A DNA stretch of 64,000 nt from a phage. A program made the position numbers and the translations under genes. The stretch lies in sequence record NC_100371.1; one strand, 5' to 3'. Within the stretch, counting starts at the first letter, position 1; the number at the start of each line of letters is the position of its first letter. Below are positions 5,192 to 59,726 of the stretch, piece by piece. The notes under the pieces are model-generated. The model was not told the DNA's origin. It made no database searches and worked only from the letters and a program-made list of their open reading frames with translations.

Positions 5192-5268
5192 TGGTCTCCA
5201 CGGAGTGATTCGAACACTCGACCTCCTGATCCCAAATCAGGCGCTCTACCAAGCTGAGCTACGCGGAG
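5192..5268 (-). tRNA. tRNA-Pro (anticodon UGG)
   Basis: Hand-folded cloverleaf: 7-bp acceptor stem, GTTCGAAT T-loop, anticodon loop TTTGGGA, encoded CCA. Confidence 0.75.
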
Positions 5269-5279
5269 TATTTATTATT

Positions 5280-5354
5280 TGGTGGCCCTGGGTGGAATTG
5301 AACCACCGTCTGGCGATTATGAGTCGCTTGCTTGAACCTTCCAGCTACAGGGCC
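5280..5354 (-). tRNA. tRNA-Met (anticodon CAU; could be initiator or Ile-lysidine type)
   Basis: Acceptor GGCCCTG/CAGGGCC, T-arm GGTGGTTCAATTCCACC, anticodon loop CTCATAA, encoded CCA. Confidence 0.7.
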
Positions 5355-5355
5355 A

Positions 5356-5431
5356 TGGTGCTGATGGCAGGACTTGAACCTGCAACCTATTGATTACAAA
5401 TCAATTGCACTGCCAATTGTGCTACATCAGC
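5356..5431 (-). tRNA. tRNA-Thr (anticodon UGU)
   Basis: Perfect 7-bp acceptor stem, D-stem GCAC/GTGC, anticodon loop TTTGTAA, T-arm GCAGGTTCAAGTCCTGC, CCA. Confidence 0.75.
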
Positions 5432-5435
5432 AAAA

Positions 5436-5534
5436 GGTGCTAGGTGATGGAATCGAACCATCTATGTATTCAACGACTACCTCGTCTATTTTCAGGATTA
5501 AAAATCCTCGCCCTTGCCAAAGGGCTTACCTAGC
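5436..5534 (-). tRNA. atypical tRNA-like gene (long variable region; anticodon not assignable by eye)
   Basis: Perfect acceptor pairing GCTAGGT/ACCTAGC and canonical T-arm GATGGTTCGATTCCATC, but about 99 nt long with an unusual anticodon-arm region (AGGAT-TTTTA-ATCCT); no complete encoded CCA. Confidence 0.4.
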
Positions 5535-5632
5535 TCAGCATGTTGACCATGTTGCTAGTCGGCGATGACGACTGTAACATTTGATAATCCGGTTCTGCTT
5601 CCGGCTTTCGCTTAATTACAAGGTCAACAATA

Positions 5633-5723
5633 TGGCAGAGGATAATGGAATCGAACCATCATCGAGTCATCCTCAACGGGACGGTTTTCAAGACCGCTTG
5701 AGCACCATTGCTCCCTACCCTCT
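5633..5723 (-). tRNA. tRNA-Ser (anticodon UGA), type II
   Basis: Acceptor AGAGGGT/ATCCTCT, anticodon loop CTTGAAA, long variable arm, T-arm GATGGTTCGATTCCATT, CCA. Confidence 0.7.
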
Positions 5724-5837
5724 TTTATAAACAATACTGATAATGACACTGATTTTCGAGCAGTTAGTGACTAGTATAAACGACGATAAATATCAATGCC
5801 ATTATCTGTATGATTTATGCATTTAAAAATATAAATT

Positions 5838-5925
5838 TGGTGGTGAGTGATGGAGTCGAACCACCCGAATCGCAATGATAACAGATTTACAGTCTGCCCC
5901 GCTACCCCTACGGAATTAACTCACC
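5838..5925 (-). tRNA. tRNA-Tyr (anticodon GUA), type II
   Basis: Acceptor GGTGAGT/ACTCACC, anticodon loop CTGTAAA, long variable arm, CCA. Confidence 0.7.
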
Positions 5926-6055
5926 TAAATACTAATATTTAAATTCTTTTTAAAATAGCTAGTGTTCTAACCACTAACTATGAGGTATCGGTAAAGTGGT
6001 TACCGCCACTTGCCGAAGATTTACTCTGCTAAAGTAAGCTACATTAAAAAGAACT

Positions 6056-6130
6056 TGGCACCCCGTACTGGACTCGAACCAGTGTCAACGGCTTAGAAGG
6101 CCGCTGCTTTATCCACTAAGCTAACAGGGC
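6056..6130 (-). tRNA. tRNA-Arg (anticodon UCU)
   Basis: Acceptor GCCCTGT/ACGGGGT, anticodon loop CTTCTAA, T-arm ACTGGTTCGAGTCCAGT, CCA. Confidence 0.75.
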
Positions 6131-6188
6131 ACTGGGTGGCTTTCTTTTACACCTGAGCCGCCAGAAAAGGTGGGAGACCATGTTTATA

Positions 6189-6217
6189 ATATTACACTGT
6201 TAGGCAAAGTTTGTCAA
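6189..6217 (-). promoter_or_regulatory. sigma70-like promoter for the tRNA cluster
   Basis: Minus strand TTGACA-N17-TAATAT, about 55 nt upstream of tRNA-Arg. Confidence 0.55.
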
Positions 6218-6226
6218 GAAAATATT

Positions 6227-6565
6227 TTAACTATTGCCAACAGGCTGTATTTCTGTGGTAAATGGCATAAAAGGTGCTGGTTTTTCAGCCTCTTCCACTA
6301 CCACCTCTTCCTCTTCACCAAACATCTCATCATATTCTTCCTGCATTCTGTCTGCCTTATCAAGAACATACTCTGCAATGCTTTGACGAATATTTTGTTT
6401 GGTTTTCGGGTCCAACATCAGCTCTCTTAAAACTTTGTGAGCTTCTGGAACCATCGCTATAAAAGATTCCTTCATATCAAGAATGTTCTTCTCTAGCTGA
6501 ATGGCGTTGGACTCCTCTTTCAGAGGTCTGCCTCTACGGCGACGCTTTTTAGTTGTATCCGCCAT
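6227..6565 (-). CDS. hypothetical protein (basic N-terminus, acidic C-terminus)
   Basis: ATG at 6565 preceded by GGAGGAAAC RBS; the 152-aa track ORF is probably an over-extension. Confidence 0.5.
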   Translation of the reverse strand: MADTTKKRRRRGRPLKEESNAIQLEKNILDMKESFIAMVPEAHKVLRELMLDPKTKQNIRQSIAEYVLDKADRMQEEYDEMFGEEEEVVVEEAEKPAPFMPFTTEIQPVGNS

Positions 6566-6593
6566 GTTTCCTCCATTATCACGTGATAGGTGG

Positions 6594-6622
6594 ATTTTAT
6601 CACGGCAAATACTGATTGTCAA
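6594..6622 (-). promoter_or_regulatory. sigma70-like promoter
   Basis: Minus strand TTGACA-N17-TAAAAT just upstream of the 6565 start. Confidence 0.5.
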
Positions 6623-6910
6623 GTTCGCCGCAGGGTGGTATTCCCTGCGACTTGCCCAGCGTCCTGGACCAGCAAGACCCAACAAGTGGGTTACCAGATA
6701 CCCATTACCGCGCTCTGGCTCGACCTTATTACAGGTTGGCTGGGGTCACATCGTCATGTGCTGGCTGCCCCTACCATTTTAAGTGTGGTGCACTATCAAG
6801 CCCTCTAAGGGGAACTCAGCCTTCTCCGAACCCTGTTTCAAAGCATCCGGAGATAAAGCCATCAAACTCATCTTTAAATTGGATATTCATCATGATACAC
6901 GAAAACAACC

Positions 6911-7153
6911 TCATTGTAAAGCACAAATAAATAAAACATACTTAATTTGTTTGTTATCAGGCTCAGGGTAGAAGTAGAAGATCTTGCTATCACCGATCTG
7001 AACACCACCATCCCAACAGCATAACCCATAACCAGTATTCATACAAGCTAAGTCGTTGGCAAAATCTATTGCATCATCTAGTGCACGAAATTCACCTTCA
7101 TCTTCTAAATAATCCTCATTCATGGAACGGAAAACGAGCTTAACCTTAAACAT
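6911..7153 (-). CDS. hypothetical protein
   Basis: 80-aa ORF in a same-strand gene array. Confidence 0.4.
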   Translation of the reverse strand: MFKVKLVFRSMNEDYLEDEGEFRALDDAIDFANDLACMNTGYGLCCWDGGVQIGDSKIFYFYPEPDNKQIKYVLFICALQ

Positions 7154-7229
7154 AGCATTACCTGTAGACCTCGTAAGTTAAAATTGTATCACATCATATT
7201 GCAGATCTTATCAGGTAACATTATTTTTG

Positions 7230-7418
7230 TCAACAGATTCCGGCCTTATCCCTCCTGTCTGCGTATTCTTTAATCGCAACCTCACCTGCATTGGTAACCA
7301 GATCTTCAAAGTAATTCTCAAGCTCCTCGTCAATGTCCGGTGACCAGCTCTTTTTCCTGTCAGTGTGAATTGCAGACTTGTTGAACTTATTACAATTCTT
7401 TGCTACCGGATTGTTCAT
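7230..7418 (-). CDS. hypothetical protein
   Basis: 62-aa ORF. Confidence 0.35.
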   Translation of the reverse strand: MNNPVAKNCNKFNKSAIHTDRKKSWSPDIDEELENYFEDLVTNAGEVAIKEYADRRDKAGIC

Positions 7419-7428
7419 TAAGCTCTCC

Positions 7429-8007
7429 TCAACGTTCGTAGTAAATCTTATTCAACATTACCTCATCGTTTGCAGAAAGGATATCAAGATATGCATCACC
7501 AAATCTGCCTGCAACAACCTCTGCATGATACATCACTTCGTTAACATCGTCAAGAGTGATAACCGGATGACCATATCTTTCTGAATATTGTCTCAGTGTG
7601 CGATGTAACGAGTCGTCATCATATGCAGACTTTTTAATATCACAAACACGACGAATGGCCTTGATGTCGAAAAAACCTGTGCGATACCACCCAAGAAAAA
7701 AGTTCCGTGTAGTGTCAACATCTACATCAATACCATTAAGAACCTTATCTACAAGATAGCTGTCATCCTTTGGACTAGCGTCCTTAGTGCGAATGTAGTT
7801 GCCATCTTTTCCAGGTGATAGCTCCTTCTCATCACCAACCTGCATGCCATCATTTGGCGGTGTTAGCCACTTATCAGGATGCTTACGATCACGAGCGTTA
7901 GAATGATTACGCTGGAAACCTGGCTTCCACTTGAAAGTTTTCTCCATCTGTTCTTCATTCTGATAACGTTTTGCAATCTTTTCACTGGCATCTTTGCGTG
8001 AACTCAT
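7429..8007 (-). CDS. hypothetical protein
   Basis: 192-aa ORF; GAGGAG-type RBS upstream. Confidence 0.5.
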   Translation of the reverse strand: MSSRKDASEKIAKRYQNEEQMEKTFKWKPGFQRNHSNARDRKHPDKWLTPPNDGMQVGDEKELSPGKDGNYIRTKDASPKDDSYLVDKVLNGIDVDVDTTRNFFLGWYRTGFFDIKAIRRVCDIKKSAYDDDSLHRTLRQYSERYGHPVITLDDVNEVMYHAEVVAGRFGDAYLDILSANDEVMLNKIYYER

Positions 8008-8510
8008 AGCAGACTCCTCTTCAAGTTATAGAAAAACTCACTGTATCGCTTTGTAACGAGCTTTTCTATCAAACTGGTGCGATTGCCTTACTTGGTATAG
8101 TTTATATAGCTGTGGAGCGATTTAGGGGCCTTCTTGTCAGTTTCCACACATAAACTTTATCCGAACTCGCGCGGGAGGCTCTCAACCGACTCCTTCCGGC
8201 GCTGGCAAGCTTTCGTCGGTGGTCCACATTAGTGCTCGGCCTTTGGCCTGCGCTATCGCTTCGCTCCCACACATGTTAACAGTCCTGCATGTATGCACTT
8301 CTGTTATTGTGTGCACTATGGAGGCCCGGCATCTCGCCCCTCGTAGGCGAGTGCCAATGAAGGGCCGACACTACCCATAATAAGTAATAAATTTAAAACA
8401 TGGTACTTAGGATCTAGTATATTCTACATAAGTTAAGTATATGTACTTTAGTACCATAAGTACTAGATCTTTTATTTTTTATTATTTAGTTATTTTAGTT
8501 ATATTCTTTA

Positions 8511-8594
8511 TGTGTCCGTATCACGGACAGTTAGTGTCCGTATTACGGGCAGATGTGTCCGCGTGACGGACAGTAGTGTCCGTATCACGGACAG
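8511..8594. promoter_or_regulatory. array of four tandem palindromic operator-like sites
   Basis: Four ~21-bp units with consensus GTGTCCGTATCACGGACAG (inverted half-sites TGTCCGT / ACGGACA) at 8511-8530, 8532-8552, 8553-8573 and 8574-8594, inside a 660-bp intergenic region. Confidence 0.6.
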
Positions 8595-8668
8595 TTACTA
8601 ACCTCTGTTCCAGAGTGAACATAAAACATACAAATCCTTATAGTACAGATGTTTAAGTTTTTACTGGT

Positions 8669-9019
8669 CTAACCAGTTGTTGACATTCGAATAACTTCTT
8701 CTGGTGGCAAAACTTTGGAAAATGTGCATCTTTTACCTCTCCCTTGTGTGGATATTTCAACCACTCCTGCACATTCTAAAGTTTTAACGCACGCTGCTGC
8801 TTTTGTTTTCTTTATCCCAACATCTGCTGCAATTTTCCTGGTGCTGGGTGTGAAGCGTGAATTTTCTCCAAGCTTATACCAGTTGTGCAGGTAGCAGTAT
8901 ACGATCTTGTCATATAAGTCAAGAACAATAACCTCCCCAGTTGTGCCATTCAAAACTTTTGACATAGACAGTATTTCAAGGGGGACTTTAAGATATAGCA
9001 GCTTATCCCCATCTTTCAT
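8669..9019 (-). CDS. hypothetical protein, possible helix-turn-helix DNA-binding protein
   Basis: 116 aa; segment RKIAADVGIKKTKAAACVKTLECAGVV looks HTH-like; lies next to the operator array. Confidence 0.4.
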   Translation of the reverse strand: MKDGDKLLYLKVPLEILSMSKVLNGTTGEVIVLDLYDKIVYCYLHNWYKLGENSRFTPSTRKIAADVGIKKTKAAACVKTLECAGVVEISTQGRGKRCTFSKVLPPEEVIRMSTTG

Positions 9020-9066
9020 ATCTCCTGATTCTCCTTGTGTGGCAATTTTCTTTAAAATAGCAGGGA

Positions 9067-9621
9067 TTACTCCCCGCTGTCAATAGCAAGACTCATTGCA
9101 ATACGGTATGCCTCTTCTAATGGTAAGAGTCTCCCCCACACATCCCAACCGACATCAAACTGCCTGCCAAACAACTGCTGTGTGGTTCCGTGAGCATGAC
9201 CGAACAGTTGGACTGATCCGTGAGGCTTTCTGTTCCACTTTGCAAACTGGTAATGGCTCATACAGATCAAATTCTTGTTGTGGCGAAGCTCGTAATAATC
9301 TACAACCTCATGACCGAACTCTTTCATAATTCTGACAGTCGTCCTTGTGTCATGGTTACCACGAACAAGAATAATATGTCCGTTCAACATATTTAGAACA
9401 TCTGGAAGCAATTTGTTGATATTCTTATCATTAGTGCACGCAATATCCCCCAAGTGAAACACAGTGTCTGCAGGTGACACAACAGAGTTCCACTTGGTGA
9501 TGATTCCCGCATTCATACTGTCAAGATTGTGATCATACTGAGATCTGTGTTTTTGACATGAGTCGAACTCCATTACCCGCTGGTGGAGAAAGTGTGTGTC
9601 GCTTGTTACAAAGTATTTCAT
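9067..9621 (-). CDS. calcineurin-like metallophosphoesterase
   Basis: MKYFVTSDTHF...GDIACTNDK...VRGNHDT motifs. Confidence 0.6.
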   Translation of the reverse strand: MKYFVTSDTHFLHQRVMEFDSCQKHRSQYDHNLDSMNAGIITKWNSVVSPADTVFHLGDIACTNDKNINKLLPDVLNMLNGHIILVRGNHDTRTTVRIMKEFGHEVVDYYELRHNKNLICMSHYQFAKWNRKPHGSVQLFGHAHGTTQQLFGRQFDVGWDVWGRLLPLEEAYRIAMSLAIDSGE

Positions 9622-9628
9622 ACATTCC

Positions 9629-10039
9629 TCATTTAAGTTTAATGCAGTTTTTAAGCTGGCGTTCCATACGATCCACAACCCTGTCTGGAACATCATGAAT
9701 GCTTTTATTACCATGGCGGTTTTCAACCACGATCACGGTATAACTATATCCATGACTGATCGCCATGTCAATATATTCTTGCACATATTTTTCTTTTGTA
9801 AACGTATTACTTACCACGATACGGTCGTAGCCCATACGCATCATATCTTCTACGTTATCTTTGCACCATTTTGCTGCAAGTGTTACTTTACTTGCATCCC
9901 AATTGTAATTGCCGTCATCGTCGTACCAGAACATATCGTTCTCAAAATGTGGATACAGACCTTCTAAAGATAGCGCATTTGCCAGTGTTGATTTGCCAGA
10001 CCCTGGTAGACCACGCACGATATATAGCATTTTAGACAT
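9629..10039 (-). CDS. P-loop kinase, polynucleotide-kinase-like
   Basis: ATG at 10039 with GGAGAG RBS; Walker A GLPGSGKST; about 136 aa. Confidence 0.55.
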   Translation of the reverse strand: MSKMLYIVRGLPGSGKSTLANALSLEGLYPHFENDMFWYDDDGNYNWDASKVTLAAKWCKDNVEDMMRMGYDRIVVSNTFTKEKYVQEYIDMAISHGYSYTVIVVENRHGNKSIHDVPDRVVDRMERQLKNCIKLK

Positions 10040-12205: not shown

Positions 12206-12919
12206 ATGCTGAATACCAAATTAATTGACAACCTGGAAAAACTGTCCCAGCCTGAAAACTACCTTTGGTCTGCCAACTGGGTGGAAAACTGGAACCGTGT
12301 AGCAGCTAAAGTGAAAAAATCATACACACCATTCGAACTTCAGCTGAGTTTCATTGAGGAAGAGTTCAATGAGGTTTTGGAAGAGTTGGAGAAAGGTGAT
12401 GGTGGGGATCATCTCCTAAAAGAGGCCTGCGATCTTCATGTTGTCACAAGTTATGCCGCTTATCTTGTTAACGATAACCATGAAAAGTGGTCAAACCTGT
12501 TTGATAATCCGCGAGGTCTTAAGTTTAAGATCGGTGAATTTTATGATACACTGATCGCTGCGAAAAATACCTCTAAGCAAAGAGCGTCTGCTTACCGCTT
12601 AGCAGAGTTGTCAACAGCTTTGCTGTTCCAGCTTCGCGGTGATGTGTGCGGGATGATGCGGAAGGTTCTAAAATCTAATGACAGCAAGTTTGCACGCGTC
12701 AACCATCTGCGGTATTCACACGGTGCCAGTGCAGATATGCCTGCTGAACAACTCATCGAGTTGGAGATTAAAGATCTTGAGCGACGCTTTGATGGTCGCT
12801 ATGAAGGTTTTGTTGCTAAAGAAGAATTCTACAACGGAAATAAAGTTATCATATTCCTTGACAGTAAAGGTAAGATTATGAAGCCTTCAAGCTTCAAAGA
12901 TGTAACAGAATATATTTAA
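12206..12919 (+). CDS. possible MazG-like all-alpha NTP pyrophosphohydrolase
   Basis: EEEFNEVLEELEKGD ... KEACDLHVV resembles the EExxE...ExxD metal-binding pattern; weak call. Confidence 0.35.
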   Translation: MLNTKLIDNLEKLSQPENYLWSANWVENWNRVAAKVKKSYTPFELQLSFIEEEFNEVLEELEKGDGGDHLLKEACDLHVVTSYAAYLVNDNHEKWSNLFDNPRGLKFKIGEFYDTLIAAKNTSKQRASAYRLAELSTALLFQLRGDVCGMMRKVLKSNDSKFARVNHLRYSHGASADMPAEQLIELEIKDLERRFDGRYEGFVAKEEFYNGNKVIIFLDSKGKIMKPSSFKDVTEYI

Positions 12920-12925
12920 TAACAT

Positions 12926-12952
12926 AGCCGGGGCGATCCCGGCTTTACTTGT
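12926..12952 (+). terminator. rho-independent terminator
   Basis: GCCGGGG-CGAT-CCCGGC hairpin followed by a T-rich tail. Confidence 0.5.
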
Positions 12953-12983
12953 TTCGGAAAGTATGCAAGTGAGGTAGAAAGTT

Positions 12984-13292
12984 ATGTACAAGCACTCCAG
13001 AGATCTTGAAAACGATGATGTGTTTGGGGATCAGATGAAAGAATTGGTTAAACTTATAGGTAGGATAGAGGATAAGTTTGACACTAAGATCTACATCGAC
13101 AGTAAAGTATTCAACCACAAAATATGGACAAATCTGTGTGTTGGACTGCATGGAGATAAAGATGTGGTAAATTTGGTTGTAATTAAGTTCATAGTGTGGC
13201 AGAATAAAACTATAAATTATTACGATCCACACCCACTTGTTTACCCGATAAAAGACCTATTAGAGAAGGAGGACTGCAATGCAGTTATTTAA
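12984..13292 (+). CDS. hypothetical protein
   Basis: 102 aa; GAGGTAGAAAG RBS. Confidence 0.45.
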   Translation: MYKHSRDLENDDVFGDQMKELVKLIGRIEDKFDTKIYIDSKVFNHKIWTNLCVGLHGDKDVVNLVVIKFIVWQNKTINYYDPHPLVYPIKDLLEKEDCNAVI

Positions 13293-46338: not shown

Positions 46339-47022
46339 TCCGGTGAACGATTCCATACCTTAAGCAGTTAATCTCATTACAGAGCGTTTAAGGGCGGCTT
46401 ACAAGCAACTCTCTATTTCGAGCGTAGCGAGAACGCACGTCCGTTTTGACCAAAATCACCATACGCTCGGATTTTAACCAAACCCTCGCGGCGCTTCTGT
46501 TGACACATTACCGCTCCTGTGATAGTATCCGCACATCGTTTGAAGAATATGGGATACACAATGAAAACATTGTCAGAGGTTTTAGTGGTGATCCTGATAA
46601 TCATTGCGTCCATAGCGGCTGTTGCCGGAATATGCTTATAGCATCGACACGTTCCAGCCATATGTCGATAAAGTCTTATTTTTTAAACATGTTGCCGGAA
46701 TACTCACGGGTGGAACATGACCAACACACATGCATCTAAAGAGACATCTGAAGGGGTGACAGAGGAAAACTTCAATTCTGAGGATTCTCTATCTCCGTCC
46801 CAGGTGGACCCTGAGGCTGATGACCTGACGTGGGAGGATATCATAGCCATCTGGTTCTCTATTATGCCTGAGCACGAAGAGTTCAGAGGTGGGAGACTAT
46901 GAAGCACCGAGCCCACATAAGTTTATCATGCTAAAGCATGGCCTGAAGGGGCAAACGTGTATAATTCTAGCGTATTGGAACGTATAAACCCTGTTCACAC
47001 TCTCATTTCCAGAGGAGATTTC

Positions 47023-47238
47023 ATGAAAATAGAGATATTTGGTGGGGCTGACAACACTCGTGGCCTGATTTACCTTGAATTTGATGAATCTTATCTGCCA
47101 GAGGTGTTAAATATAGATGCTGTTGCGGAAGCCCTTGATGTAGACCCTAAAGATCTCTACTCTGGTGCTGAGATTGATGGTTGGGAAGAGACTCTGAACA
47201 TTGATTTCAGTGAAGTAGTGGGTGAACCTTTGGACTGA
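47023..47238 (+). CDS. small acidic protein, MKIEIF-type
   Basis: ATG with AGAGGAGA RBS; last plus-strand gene before the ORF-free region. Confidence 0.45.
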   Translation: MKIEIFGGADNTRGLIYLEFDESYLPEVLNIDAVAEALDVDPKDLYSGAEIDGWEETLNIDFSEVVGEPLD

Positions 47239-47377
47239 CACACAAGTCTGCTTTGCAGGTTTAGCTGCCCAGCTAAGGTTCTGGAGGCACCTATAACATC
47301 TTTCAACTAAATTTCCTACCAACACAGTTACTTACCCACCACACATAACTGTTTGCTTGTTTAGTGAGCAGTCATCC

Positions 47378-47405
47378 CTTGACATTCTTGCCTATCTTGA
47401 TAAAA
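47378..47405 (+). promoter_or_regulatory. sigma70-like promoter with no ORF downstream
   Basis: TTGACA-N16-TAAAAT reading into a purine/GC-rich stretch with no credible ORF. Confidence 0.4.
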
Positions 47406-48766
47406 TTAAGTTCTTCTCTTTTCTTTTACCGAGTAATTCGGGTTTTCTGTTCTCTTCGGTTTGAAGGGGTATGGAGATACACCTGAGTGAACAGGGTGAA
47501 CAACCGAACATTTGGCTATGGCATTAGCATGGCGAAGCGGACGGGTGACGAAAGAGGGGCCGGAGGACACCAGTCACTGCCATATAGTATATGGGTGATA
47601 ACCTGAAGAGTCTGAATAAGTGTTTAAGTACCAGTCAGAGGAAAAGGTGAATGGTAGCCGAAGGGGGAGAGGGGGTTTCTTATATCTTTAATTTGTATAT
47701 TATGTATACACTTGTAAACCAATTCAATTAGGATCTGTTTACCACACAAAGTGGATGGAGACAAATATCACCTATTAAACTTGAATTATTTATAGAAAAT
47801 ACCACAACACCTCTTAAGTATTTGATTTTACACACAAATCTTACAAATATCCTACCTCCATATTTAACATACTTGTAACATATTCCATATCCTACCTGCC
47901 TGATCAATTTACTCCCACCACATCCCCACATTTTCCCTGTCTGTACTACCCCTGCCCCGCCGGGAGTCCCGTCATATCTGGCTTTCCAGCAAATATCGCA
48001 CCCACAAATATCATCACCTGAAGAGGGTTTCATCCCATAATACCTGCCTTACCTGAAGAGCGCTTCATACACCACGTAAATTTTTTAATTGACCCCTCCC
48101 CGCCGCCGGAGAGGTTGGCTTTTCCCACACAGGCCTGAAGAGTCAGCCAGAAATATCTGAACAGGTCCAGTTATACCCCGATTTTGTGCCTGTCCTACAG
48201 GAGTGCTGCCCTGTCAGGAGCCGGTAGCGACTGGAGTGCTGCCAGGCGGACGGAATGGGAATACTTCTCATTTTTATAATAATTCTCAAATATCGAGGCA
48301 GTGAGGCAAATTAATAGGCCAGGCCGTTCACACAGTGGCACAACATTTGCAATCTATCTTGTGGGAGTGAATGAGAATACCTATCATTGTGAGAATGGTT
48401 ATCATTACGGGCAATTTAACATAATACCCATTATGCGCACCACTGGCGATACATACAGGGATTGATAACATGGGTTACTGTTTACGCATATAACAATTAT
48501 ATTTCTTACTATTTGTGTGGGATATAGTTAGCAACCAATAGATTAGATATTGACCTGCAGACTTCTGACCGTCCAGACGTCTAAACGCCCACACAGCAAG
48601 GATTATACATACACTCCTGCATGTAAACAGGACCGCAAAAATGCTACCATACCAGTTTGTAAATTTTTCATGCAGCACTTGACAAAGAGGAGAAAAACTT
48701 GTCTGACACACTGGACACAATGTCCCACAATATGACACAATAACGGCTGTTACTATTCCATATCTC

Positions 48767-48824
48767 ACTGTTTACGCATAGACTGTTTACGCCTGAATAG
48801 TTTACGCAAAAACTGTTTACACAG
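48767..48824. repeat. four tandem iteron-like direct repeats (ACTGTTTACGC)
   Basis: Copies at 14-17-bp spacing; further copies near 48477, 49231 and 49267. Confidence 0.55.
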
Positions 48825-48833
48825 AGATGATAA

Positions 48834-49066
48834 GCCATGCCATTCGTTTGCATGAAAACAATTAACAAGCTAACAATCTATGACATAATATAAAAGCAGG
48901 GCAACTATTAGAAGATCTATAGTTGCCTTGCTTGTTATGTCATGATTAACTAAATACAAGGCAACTATGATCTGAATAATAGATTGCAGACAAACTATCA
49001 CGGGGGTGATTGTTACTGCTTTTATATTATGTCGCGACTCCGTCGCGCCATGCCATTCGTTTGCAT
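48834..49066. repeat. dyad-symmetric element bounded by a 20-bp direct repeat
   Basis: GCCATGCCATTCGTTTGCAT at 48834-48853 and 49047-49066; inverted 18-mers GACATAATATAAAAGCAG / CTGCTTTTATATTATGTC; several GGCAACTAT/ATAGTTGCC palindromes. Confidence 0.5.
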
Positions 49067-49681
49067 AGTTGCCTTATTGTTACAGGTAAAACAATTACAT
49101 TATTAATTATTTCTTATCTTTCTCTTAGTCATCTAATGATTCCAGTCAGTATAGTAATGTACAGTAAACATTAGACGACTAAAGATTTCTCTGTGTATAA
49201 TAACTTATCGTGACAATTTCGAACTGTTTACGAAAAATGTTGACACCTGAGCTGATTTATGTTATGCAGTTTACACGAATAATTATTTTATGCAGGTATT
49301 GACTATTCCGTTATTCTGTGGTTGGAATAAATACTTTGCAGACTATAGAATGGCGTGCGTACGTGAATTCTGAGATCTGGCGGCTATAGTTATACTCGAT
49401 TTTTCGCGTAGAACACGCTTTCGATGCTGTGTAAGTGTATGACTTATAAAGATTTTTAGTTGTTGACAAGATATTGGAGATGTGCATCAGGTTAAAATTT
49501 GTGCAATAGCGGCATTACGTGCACTTTTGGGAGAGAAAACGGGTAAAAATGGCCCTGCTACCACACAATGAAAGATTATGCAATAGTTATTTTCCATGTA
49601 TATTTGTACAGTATGTGGGATTGATGGCTAGTCAATTATTCCACTTGCCAGGTAGGGCCGTTTATGGTAGGAGAAGAGCAG

Positions 49682-49709
49682 ACAAAAAGAAAGGGGCCTT
49701 TAAGCCCCT
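49682..49709 (-). terminator. rho-independent terminator ending the minus-strand gene block
   Basis: AGGGGC-loop-GCCCCT hairpin followed by a T-tract on the minus strand. Confidence 0.55.
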
Positions 49710-59162: not shown

Positions 59163-59271
59163 ATTACCTTTTATTTTTGTACCTCCTCTTCAGTTGTTGC
59201 CTACCCTATAGCATAGCCCCGCCAGGTTGCAACGGTTAGCGCATCAGGTTAGAATTTTTTTTTGAAAAGTG

Positions 59272-59540
59272 TTGACAGCGGCCCCGCCAGGTGGCACAAT
59301 ATACCTATCGAAAGGACGGCAGGCACCGGTGACGGGGGAGACAACCACCGGGGATGGGCGCTGCATAAAATGAGAACGGTTATCATTATCATTTAAAAAT
59401 TTATGCAAAAAATCCTTGCTTTCTTTGTCCTGTGTGATACTATAATAACAAGCCGGGGCAACAGGGGCCGGGAGACAATCACCGGGGGTGCCCGTTATTC
59501 TGCAAACGAGAATGATTATCATTCAAAATTCTAAATGAGA
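59272..59540 (+). ncRNA. candidate small RNA units (two tandem promoter plus GC-hairpin modules)
   Basis: TTGACA-N17-CACAAT at 59272-59300 and a TATAAT box near 59441, each followed by a GGCAGGCACC...GGTGCC-type hairpin and the shared tail GAGAA(C/T)G(G/A)TTATCATT; no ORF. Speculative. Confidence 0.25.
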
Positions 59541-59726
59541 CCTTTTCGCATTTCATAAATTTAGTTAGCATGCTAATTACCTACCGTGACAATTCTATAT
59601 AAAATAATACCTCCTTAAGTATTTCCATATACAAATTTTAAAAATCCATTTCCGAAAACGAAAAATCGATTTCGTCCCCAAAAATTTCAGGTCGAGCTCC
59701 GGAACGATTTCCAGAAAATCTGATTC

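Follow-up and report, generated by a model that had tools for sequence, protein, structure and literature searches.

The 64,000-nucleotide window of phage sequence NC_100371.1 analysed here contains a non-coding gap at 8008-8668 (661 bp), flanked by the minus-strand genes 7429-8007 and 8669-9019. In this gap, a palindrome array, an AT-rich segment and a GC-rich island lie next to the gene for a small DNA-binding-type protein, an arrangement that is probably an iteron-type replication origin with its own initiator. The genes of the region all lie on the minus strand, in the order phosphoesterase gene (9067-9726), 116-amino-acid protein gene (8669-9019), gap, 192-amino-acid protein gene (7429-8007) and small genes, beyond which a tRNA cluster is located at 5192-6130. 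The segment 8010-8668 (659 bases) matched 118 phage records at 80-99.7% identity and essentially full length, which places the window in an rV5-like phage of the genus Vequintavirus; the 'Campylobacter' records among these matches are the same rV5-like phages. Window coordinates differ from those of rV5 by an offset of approximately 56,640 on the same strand. An earlier inspection of the letters without database searches (the sequence-only reading) had placed the gap between two minus-strand genes but had put its size at about 620 bp. A paralogue search found no further copy of the gap in the window or in rV5. At this locus, the most AT-rich and the most GC-rich DNA of the window, its extremes in composition, adjoin each other.

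Four 17-bp palindromes, TGTCCG-N5-CGGACA, occupy 8512-8597, with cores at 8513-8529, 8535-8551, 8556-8572 and 8577-8593; the four tandem operator-like palindromes of the sequence-only reading are thus present. Their centres are spaced 22, 21 and 21 bp apart, copies 1 and 4 are identical, and copies 2 and 3 have one mismatch each. When up to three mismatches were allowed, only two other sites were found in the 64 kb, both with three mismatches, and in the whole rV5 genome (137,947 bp) the motif occurs at this locus only. As single-stranded DNA, the array folded with a z-score of -7.0 relative to shuffled sequences. The gene 8669-9019 ends 75 bp from the array, which is marked as a 'repeat_region' in record MN850627. 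An iteron-type origin is expected to contain at least three repeated sites in helical phase, an adjoining AT-rich region that melts easily, and a linked gene for the cognate initiator; four phased sites were found here. Three independent short-read assemblies (Logan contigs) break inside the array, which is probably an assembly effect of the 21-bp repeats and not a biological end.

A conservation analysis, proposed by the sequence-only reading, was carried out on eight sequences that cover the locus completely, namely the window and seven relatives (rV5, pangalan, the 'Aya' clade with 89% identity, and contigs from metagenomes). Only 3.4% of the columns were variable in the palindrome array, compared with approximately 15% in the flanking genes (12-16% in the three of them), 11% in the AT-rich stretch and 20% in the GC island. 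The poorly conserved spacer between the stop codon of the 116-amino-acid protein gene and the array (8598-8668) had the highest value of the locus (24%). The half-sites TGTCCG/CGGACA and the 22/21/21 spacing were unchanged in all ten complete arrays examined, a set of locus sequences that included three further metagenome contigs and relatives approximately 11% divergent. Variation was confined to the central 5 bp, except that copy 2 (and, in one variant, copy 4) has a fixed G in one of its half-sites. Invariant half-sites around a variable centre fit the pattern expected of a site contacted by a protein, in which a dimer would occupy two half-sites one helical turn apart. A role as RNA hairpins is disfavoured because RNA stems would covary, and a role at the transcript level is likewise disfavoured because the imperfect copies would pair G-U on opposite strands.

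The AT-rich segment at 8375-8510 (18-19% GC), a candidate DNA-unwinding element, adjoins the array and contains interleaved inverted repeats and two GATC sites. Within it, 8380-8509 (19% GC) was the stretch with the lowest GC content and the lowest stability in the 64 kb at window sizes of 60, 100 and 130 bp. Its nearest-neighbour free energy was -101.7 compared with a mean of -132.3 (standard deviation 6.1), that is, approximately 5 standard deviations less stable. An AT-rich stretch with inverted repeats had been reported before, and three repeat pairs were confirmed (8377-8391/8471-8485, 8400-8407/8450-8457 and 8411-8419/8461-8469), two of which are interleaved, not nested. The core of the segment, 8411-8454, was invariant within the Aya clade.

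The minus-strand gene 8669-9019, in which a helix-turn-helix-like segment had been suspected, does encode a protein of the winged-helix DNA-binding type according to Pfam and to an AlphaFold (AF2) model. This 116-amino-acid protein, the homologue of rV5 gp075, passed the Pfam family DUF6945 (PF22182) with 28.8 bits against a cut-off of 28 over residues 19-91, nearly passed HTH_36, and belongs to PHROG 12838, 'replication initiation protein'. The rV5 protein bears the same label in RefSeq, and the gene is named 'putative transcriptional regulator' in many records. The sole significant sequence match in the PDB was 4RO3 (phmmer; E 2e-5, residues 12-90). The AF2 model, a single winged-helix domain with a predicted local distance difference test (pLDDT) score of 84, also had 4RO3 as its best fold match (Foldseek; E 3e-6, template modelling (TM) score 0.66, 108 aligned columns), and the aligned 83-residue stretch of 4RO3 itself scores 80.7 bits (E 8e-23) against DUF6945. 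The next fold matches were the staphylococcal RepA_N initiator domains 4PQL, 4PT7, 5KBJ and 4PTA (E 2e-4 to 1e-2, 114-122 columns, TM 0.52-0.59), and one of the RepA_N domains matched is bound to iteron DNA. A homologue search by word index returned Vequintavirus proteins only; an exhaustive protein search added weak matches to multi-domain winged-helix proteins, including nuclease fusions, and a scan of viral contigs with the 116-amino-acid protein gave no match. Upstream of the gene, a consensus scan found a σ70-like promoter on the minus strand at 9054-9083 (TTGACA-18-TATTTT with TG, 10 of 12 matches), at the same place as the annotated promoter P76 of rV5.

The structure 4RO3 is the N-terminal domain of RepA from the Vibrio cholerae PLE satellite (PMC7145576). 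PLE RepA was shown by electrophoretic mobility shift assay to bind semi-palindromic iterons in the PLE non-coding region, and replication of PLE requires it (PMC7145576). RepA and the origin region suffice for replication only when the helper phage ICP1 infects the cell; this phage has a helicase-primase and a T7-like polymerase and must supply an SF1B-type helicase for PLE (PMC7145576). The rV5 genome likewise encodes a T7-like DNA polymerase, a primase-helicase and a PIF1/RecD-like helicase (PMC3606486). By sequence and fold comparison, the 116-amino-acid protein is a homologue of a domain from an initiator proven to bind iterons, and the phage has a replisome of the matching kind. The protein is a candidate origin-binding initiator that would consist of a RepA_N-like N-terminal domain only.

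A pattern search with the loop of the GC island detected a divergent rV5-like phage, IMGVR_UViG_3300010279_000001, in which the sequences flanking this locus are 83-93% identical to those of the window. In this phage, 8370-9056 (687 bases comprising the AT-rich stretch, the palindromes and the gene) is swapped for 853 unrelated bases. The protein encoded by the replacement has 143 amino acids and is distantly homologous to the 116-amino-acid protein (E 5e-7, 26% identity over 84 residues). The stop codon of its gene is immediately followed by different palindromes, TGATRCA-N-TGYATCA (ATCTGATRCAAATATGYATCAGAT), spaced 21, 22 and 33 bp apart and accompanied by a T-rich stretch; no further relatives of this variant were found. 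Joint replacement of a DNA-binding gene and the neighbouring repeats is what would be expected of a cognate protein-site pair. The expected linkage of a cognate initiator gene is accordingly seen in proximity and in the joint swap, and the binding itself is what we infer. The suggestion of the sequence-only reading that the 8669-9019 product binds the palindromes is in this sense favoured by the homology to the PLE RepA domain and by the joint swap. In the Mydovirus phage VLCpiM5b, a 105-amino-acid homologue (33% identity over 48 residues) lies beside an AT-rich divergent gap, and in the Seunavirus SSE121, ATTCCC-N4-GGGAAT palindromes lie in a 710-bp gap in the same neighbourhood. The divergent phage also has an extra 835 bp, a gene-sized segment inserted between the homologues of window positions 7418 and 7415 (positions 2122-2956 of the merged contigs).

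From the computed anatomy, uniqueness, conservation pattern, homology and cassette swap, we infer binding, melting and replisome entry as follows. Dimers of the 116-amino-acid protein would bind the four palindromes, whose distance of two helical turns would place every dimer on the same side of the helix. Such an assembly of protein and DNA would help to open the adjoining 130-bp stretch of 19% GC, where the primase-helicase, the PIF1/RecD-like (SF1B-type) helicase and the T7-like DNA polymerase of the phage would enter. This model copies the experimentally studied PLE satellite, in which RepA, through a homologous DNA-binding domain, binds semi-palindromic iterons, and replication requires the helper phage and an SF1B helicase. 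The GC island may assist as a melting boundary, as priming or loading hairpins, or as the source of a primer transcript.

Several observations weigh against an origin at this locus. The 116-amino-acid protein did not match Pfam RepA_N (PF06970) at E values up to 0.1, and it lacks the C-terminal domain carried by RepA_N initiators, so that only DUF6945 membership and the N-terminal fold of this family were found, and neither its sequence model nor its two-domain architecture. PLE RepA was itself placed in the RepA_N family by structure, not by sequence (PMC7145576). Related winged-helix proteins are also fused to GIY-YIG or T5orf172 nuclease domains, and the fold does not dictate function for this reason. 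Neither DnaA boxes nor sites for IHF, which are present in many origins but not in all, were found in 8008-8668. RepA_N iterons usually converge on a poly-A tract (PMC7145576), which is missing from the centre of the window palindromes. The turn of the GC skew is approximately 1.5 kb away, at a switch of gene orientation, and is uninformative. Finally, palindromes beside a DNA-binding gene are also compatible with an operator array.

The last point corresponds to a transcriptional control module, in which the winged-helix protein would be a repressor or activator and the four palindromes its operators; these would either regulate or stop the transcripts that extend from the gene of the protein into the operon to its left, or regulate a promoter concealed within the AT-rich stretch. 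Palindromes adjoining the gene for a small DNA-binding protein are typical of regulators, a regulatory name is given to this gene in many records, and transcription that starts at the promoter 9054-9083 and heads for the gene 7429-8007 would cross the array. Cassette swaps of a protein with its sites are also known from immunity regions, but the phage is virulent and an immunity function would not be expected. The model further gave partial fold matches to CodY, CRP and MarR-type regulators; these covered approximately 73 residues only, whereas the full-length matches in sequence and fold were initiator domains. A scan confined to the σ70 consensus found no promoter (at least 9 of 12 matches) overlapping or adjoining the sites on either strand in 8375-8600, and the sole promoter-like match in the gap was a weak one on the plus strand at 8616-8644. 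An operator would also not require four sites in equal phase next to the most easily melted DNA of the 64 kb. We consider such a module unlikely, although it is the first of the alternatives to be kept in mind. The sequence-only reading had suggested an origin or, alternatively, a repressor-controlled hub; the origin and the pairing of protein and sites are favoured here because of the RepA-domain homology, the joint swap, the phased, unique and conserved sites and the most meltable DNA, with some room left for a transcriptional role.

In the rV5 genome paper, the origin was sought by skew analysis with an inconclusive result (PMC3606486), so that no rival origin is known. Our literature searches for the rV5 origin and for Vequintavirus non-coding RNAs or satellites found nothing relevant, and no paper found in them places an origin here. 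The RefSeq label of gp075 and the marking of the repeats in one record predate this analysis.

The PLE RepA origin is the closest known system, and lambda ori and RK2 oriV resemble the locus in layout. The PLE origin shares with it a homologous DNA-binding domain (DUF6945, the best match in both sequence and fold), repeated semi-palindromic sites in a non-coding region, and the kinds of T7-like polymerase, helicase-primase and SF1B helicase that occur in the ICP1-dependent system and in rV5. It differs in that the window protein has only 116 amino acids and no C-terminal domain, that the window locus belongs to a large virulent phage whereas PLE is a satellite, and that the window has four 17-bp palindromes in perfect spacing with no poly-A centre. 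The staphylococcal RepA_N initiators of pSK41 and pTZ2162 (4PQL, 4PT7, 4PTA and 5KBJ) have the same winged-helix N-terminal fold over its full length, and their domains bind iterons. Unlike the window locus, however, their iterons lie inside the rep gene and their C-terminal domain recruits host proteins; the window protein also lacks their Pfam RepA_N match.

In lambda ori, O dimers bind four dyad-symmetric iterons of 19 bp, after which comes an AT-rich region; the origin lies inside the O gene, the C-terminal domain of O recruits P-DnaB, and the host replisome is used. The locus resembles it in the four phased dyad-symmetric iterons beside an AT-rich unwinding region and in the joint exchange of initiator and sites between related phages. 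The position of the lambda origin inside O, the recruiting domain of O and the use of the host replisome set it apart, and no sequence relationship was found. In RK2 oriV, iterons, an AT-rich region and an adjoining GC-rich region follow in the same order as in the window. The RK2 iterons are direct, non-palindromic 17-bp repeats and are accompanied by DnaA boxes, whereas the window sites are palindromic and have none. To our knowledge, the GC-rich part of RK2 is neither built of covarying hairpins nor shared with other replicons.

The GC-rich segment pointed out by the sequence-only reading is present at 8150-8372, and the 100 bp with the highest GC content in the window (65%) are at 8168-8267. 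The segment is, however, an element of its own, which survives the cassette swap and is shared with plasmids of approximately 13 kb. The island is single-copy in the phage and consists of three parts. Block 1 (8168-8230) has a stem of approximately 8 bp and an invariant 24-nt loop, TCCTTCCGGCGCTGGCAAGCTTTC. By folding, the middle part (8268-8316) forms a hairpin, CACACA..TAACAG..TGCA / TGCA..CTGTTA..TGTGTG; although 18 nt of it are deleted in rV5, a perfect 8-bp palindrome, CACACATG/CATGTGTG, is retained there. Block 2 (8320-8372) is a hairpin of the form GGCCC / GGCA-CTCGCC ... GGCGAG-TGCC / GGGCC. In the divergent phage the island is kept, with block 2 at the edge of the swapped cassette. 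Compensatory changes were found in the stems: in block 1, CCGAC/GTCGG of the phage is CTGCC/GGCAG in the plasmids, and the enclosing helix GGGAG/CTCCC is GGAAGA/TCTTCC in the divergent phage; in block 2, GGCA..TGCC of the phage is GTCA..TGAC, and CTCGCC/GGCGAG is CTCTCC/GGAGAG, in the plasmid CP020521, which amounts to two compensatory pair changes, G-C to T-A both times. The evidence for covariation comes solely from the phage-plasmid comparison and from that with the divergent phage.

The gap had been described as free of open reading frames (ORFs). ORFs of 31-56 amino acids do exist in it, and one of them, the 56-amino-acid minus-strand frame 8102-8272, is annotated as gp074 in rV5, but it lacks third-position bias. 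In a codon-position test its variable columns were distributed 21/28/22, compared with 19/10/42, 9/12/35 and 23/21/54 in neighbouring genes, and the phage-plasmid differences in it are compensatory in the nucleotides and radical in the protein. A plus-strand ORF at 8219-8380 was rejected as a gene because of an in-frame stop in the Aya clade. From these patterns, gp074 was judged to be a spurious annotation and the island to be non-coding. A chromosomal source in E. coli was also rejected, since plasmids but no chromosome matched among the E. coli genomes. A likeness of 8150-8170 to the E. coli CRISPR repeat and Shine-Dalgarno/anti-Shine-Dalgarno words in the block 1 loop were judged by inspection to be chance or untestable. 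No match to the loop pattern was found in genome contigs; a 21-nt loop pattern retrieved from metagenomes only rV5-like phages, plasmid-like contigs and chance matches, and 16-nt loop and block 2 patterns gave only chance matches in viral contigs. Taken together, the comparisons indicate that the island is a separate structured non-coding element, more than a compositional feature of the origin, and it may function either as RNA or as DNA in extruded or single-stranded form.

If it acts as RNA, a non-coding RNA from the island could be the main product of the locus, with its promoter in the AT-rich stretch and the palindromes as upstream regulatory sites. The non-coding character of the island, its hairpins with compensatory changes, its conservation in all 118 Vequintavirus records and the nearby tRNA cluster are consistent with this. 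The island also folded somewhat better than shuffled sequences, with z-scores of -1.9 for the minus strand and -2.8 for the plus strand. Wobble pairs indicated no strand (13 cells favoured plus and 7 minus, in a count in which helix P2a was mislocated). With the phages alone, RNAalifold found no pair changed on both sides and mispaired block 1. The gap had no match in Rfam 15, either at gathering thresholds over the whole window, where only tRNAs elsewhere exceeded the threshold, or in an E-value scan of 6100-9100; the best hit, rli43 at 24.6 bits where 100 are required, was at chance level. Neither a tRNA nor a transfer-messenger RNA was detected in the gap by ARAGORN. The island has no flanking consensus promoter or terminator, and it is independent of the palindromes and the AT-rich stretch, being kept when these are swapped. 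A non-coding RNA as the main product is consequently quite improbable.

In a search of E. coli genomes, blocks 8168-8230 and 8320-8372 were found to be 84-87% identical to sequences of circular plasmids of approximately 13.2-13.7 kb, namely CP020521 (NZ_CP020521.1), CP148565, CP035869, CP178698 and CP043822 (a trimer assembled at 39.6 kb). All five plasmids and two metagenome contigs matched block 1 at 84-86% identity, and block 2 was found in only one plasmid, CP020521 (87%, at 12635-12688). The plasmids carry genes for a major capsid protein, a tape-measure protein, a tail-completion protein, a protein annotated as baseplate and an initiator-like protein; no terminase or portal gene was found in them. 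Three of their proteins are 39-54% identical to rV5 gp048, gp056 and gp049; the 'baseplate' protein is the homologue of gp048, a hypothetical protein encoded beside the tape-measure gene. The capsid protein matched weakly to capsids of 140-150-kb myophages. The hairpin blocks are by far the best-conserved sequence common to plasmids and phage.

Each plasmid has an unannotated region of 2.2-2.9 kb with its own iterons, which differ between plasmids, and block 1 lies to one side of these iterons in the same orientation as in the phage. The phage palindromes are absent. Since the plasmids share the GC island but not the palindromes and carry their own iterons, the palindromes fit an initiator-specific site. 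In CP020521, block 2 marks the start of 640 additional bp, and these end in an AT-rich stretch that contains three palindromic repeats (TATATCA..TTGATAT) and looks like a captured phage-type origin; the insert 12680-13170 had no match in phage records. The shared blocks suggest a shared cis function, which could be that of an origin accessory, a packaging signal or a common regulatory RNA, or else an exchange of mobile hairpin modules. The last is plausible because a second shared element was found at rV5 105.69 kb. This 50-nt triple-hairpin element (CTGGCTATGCCAG, GGTGACCTTTGGTCACC, CACCCCTTCGGGTG) is common to rV5 (105688-105736 and 103483-103540) and the plasmids (CP020521 10886-10934, plasmid sequences L015 10647-10697 and L016 8549-8597) at 84-90% identity. 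Its positions differ between rV5 and the plasmids, some copies lie inside annotated ORFs, and the 105.69-kb copy is missing at the equivalent place of the window (approximately 48.9 kb).

The plasmids look like plasmid-borne satellites or miniature relatives of rV5-like phages. It is possible, though we hold this only tentatively, that they are plasmid-borne Vequintavirus satellites in which the shared cis-acting hairpins are a handle on a helper function, either packaging or origin firing. No published description of this plasmid family was found in literature searches, and we know of no mobilisation of the 13-kb plasmids by rV5-like phages. A known satellite-helper pair, P4 and P2, shares a cos site. 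As there, a short non-coding stretch is best conserved between a small element and a large phage (84-87% DNA identity of the island blocks compared with 39-54% amino-acid identity of the shared proteins). The window element differs from P4/P2 in being a hairpin with a conserved loop and not a cohesive-end site, and its packaging role is only putative.

The P4/P2 precedent for a packaging signal shared between satellite and helper raises the further possibility that the locus is the start of packaging, with the winged-helix protein acting like a small terminase and the palindromes or the GC island as the pac site. Small terminases are short proteins that recognise repeated sites and have a winged helix at the N-terminus. 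The rV5 annotation includes none, the large terminase gene lies in the same leftward unit as the locus, and the best-conserved sequence is shared with plasmids that have capsid and tail genes and no terminase. However, the large terminase gene is 4.4 kb and approximately ten genes away in rV5, the homology of the protein is to a replication initiator, the 13-kb plasmids lack the palindromes, and none of the 40 phage records listed starts at the locus. A packaging start is thus the least probable of the readings considered, and we give it very little weight; block 1 of the island could have a pac role alone.

Other features of the window were recorded alongside the locus. The 192-amino-acid protein gene 7429-8007 (minus strand) belongs to PHROG 12226 with no assigned function and serves here as context only. 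A hairpin in its leader, at 8028-8069 on the minus strand (an inverted repeat of 12 nt, 92% complementary), is conserved far above its surroundings and is nearly invariant even in the 83%-identical divergent phage; it is only possibly part of the origin. A second GC-rich island with few ORFs (up to 62% GC) lies between minus-strand genes at 6600-6850, with a folding z-score of -2.0 and no Rfam match, and a strong promoter-like site on the minus strand at 6594-6622 marks its downstream edge. In the tRNA cluster, a 99-nt tRNA-like gene at 5436-5534 (minus strand) was called by ARAGORN with a 4-base 'anticodon' and had a low tRNA score of 37.5 bits; it is annotated as 'tRNA-OTHER' in phage pangalan. 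At 59200-59700, two tandem units each consist of a strong σ70-like promoter (e.g. TTGACA...) and a GC-rich hairpin leader (CCGGTGACGGGGGAGACAACCACCGGGG; the second copy is similar). These units adjoin a stretch of 24% GC, and of all 100-bp stretches in the window, the second richest in GC and the third richest in AT lie in this region.

The region 46900-49700 (approximately 2.6-2.8 kb), between convergent gene blocks, has few long ORFs and alternating very AT-rich and GC-rich patches, and corresponds to the box that the rV5 paper labels 'non-coding' (rV5 104.0-106.6 kb). The region holds 6 of the 28 copies of the heptamer CCACACA/TGTGTGG in the window, a number compared with 8.4 expected and reached in none of 100 shuffles. 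The same heptamer bounds hairpin cassettes in the plasmid non-coding region; a consistent context was not found in the window.

Phages of the rV5 type are widely isolated, are used in phage typing and in therapy cocktails, and form part of the BASEL collection. The origin of Vequintavirus has never been located so far, and the locus described here is a specific candidate. The link through the GC island points to a possible helper-satellite system in E. coli. If the origin proposal is true, the locus would offer a handle on how a T7-like replisome and an SF1B helicase are recruited by an initiator that has no recruiting domain, and it would explain why PLE RepA works only with a helper phage. 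It would also provide a minimal phage-dependent replicon for engineering.

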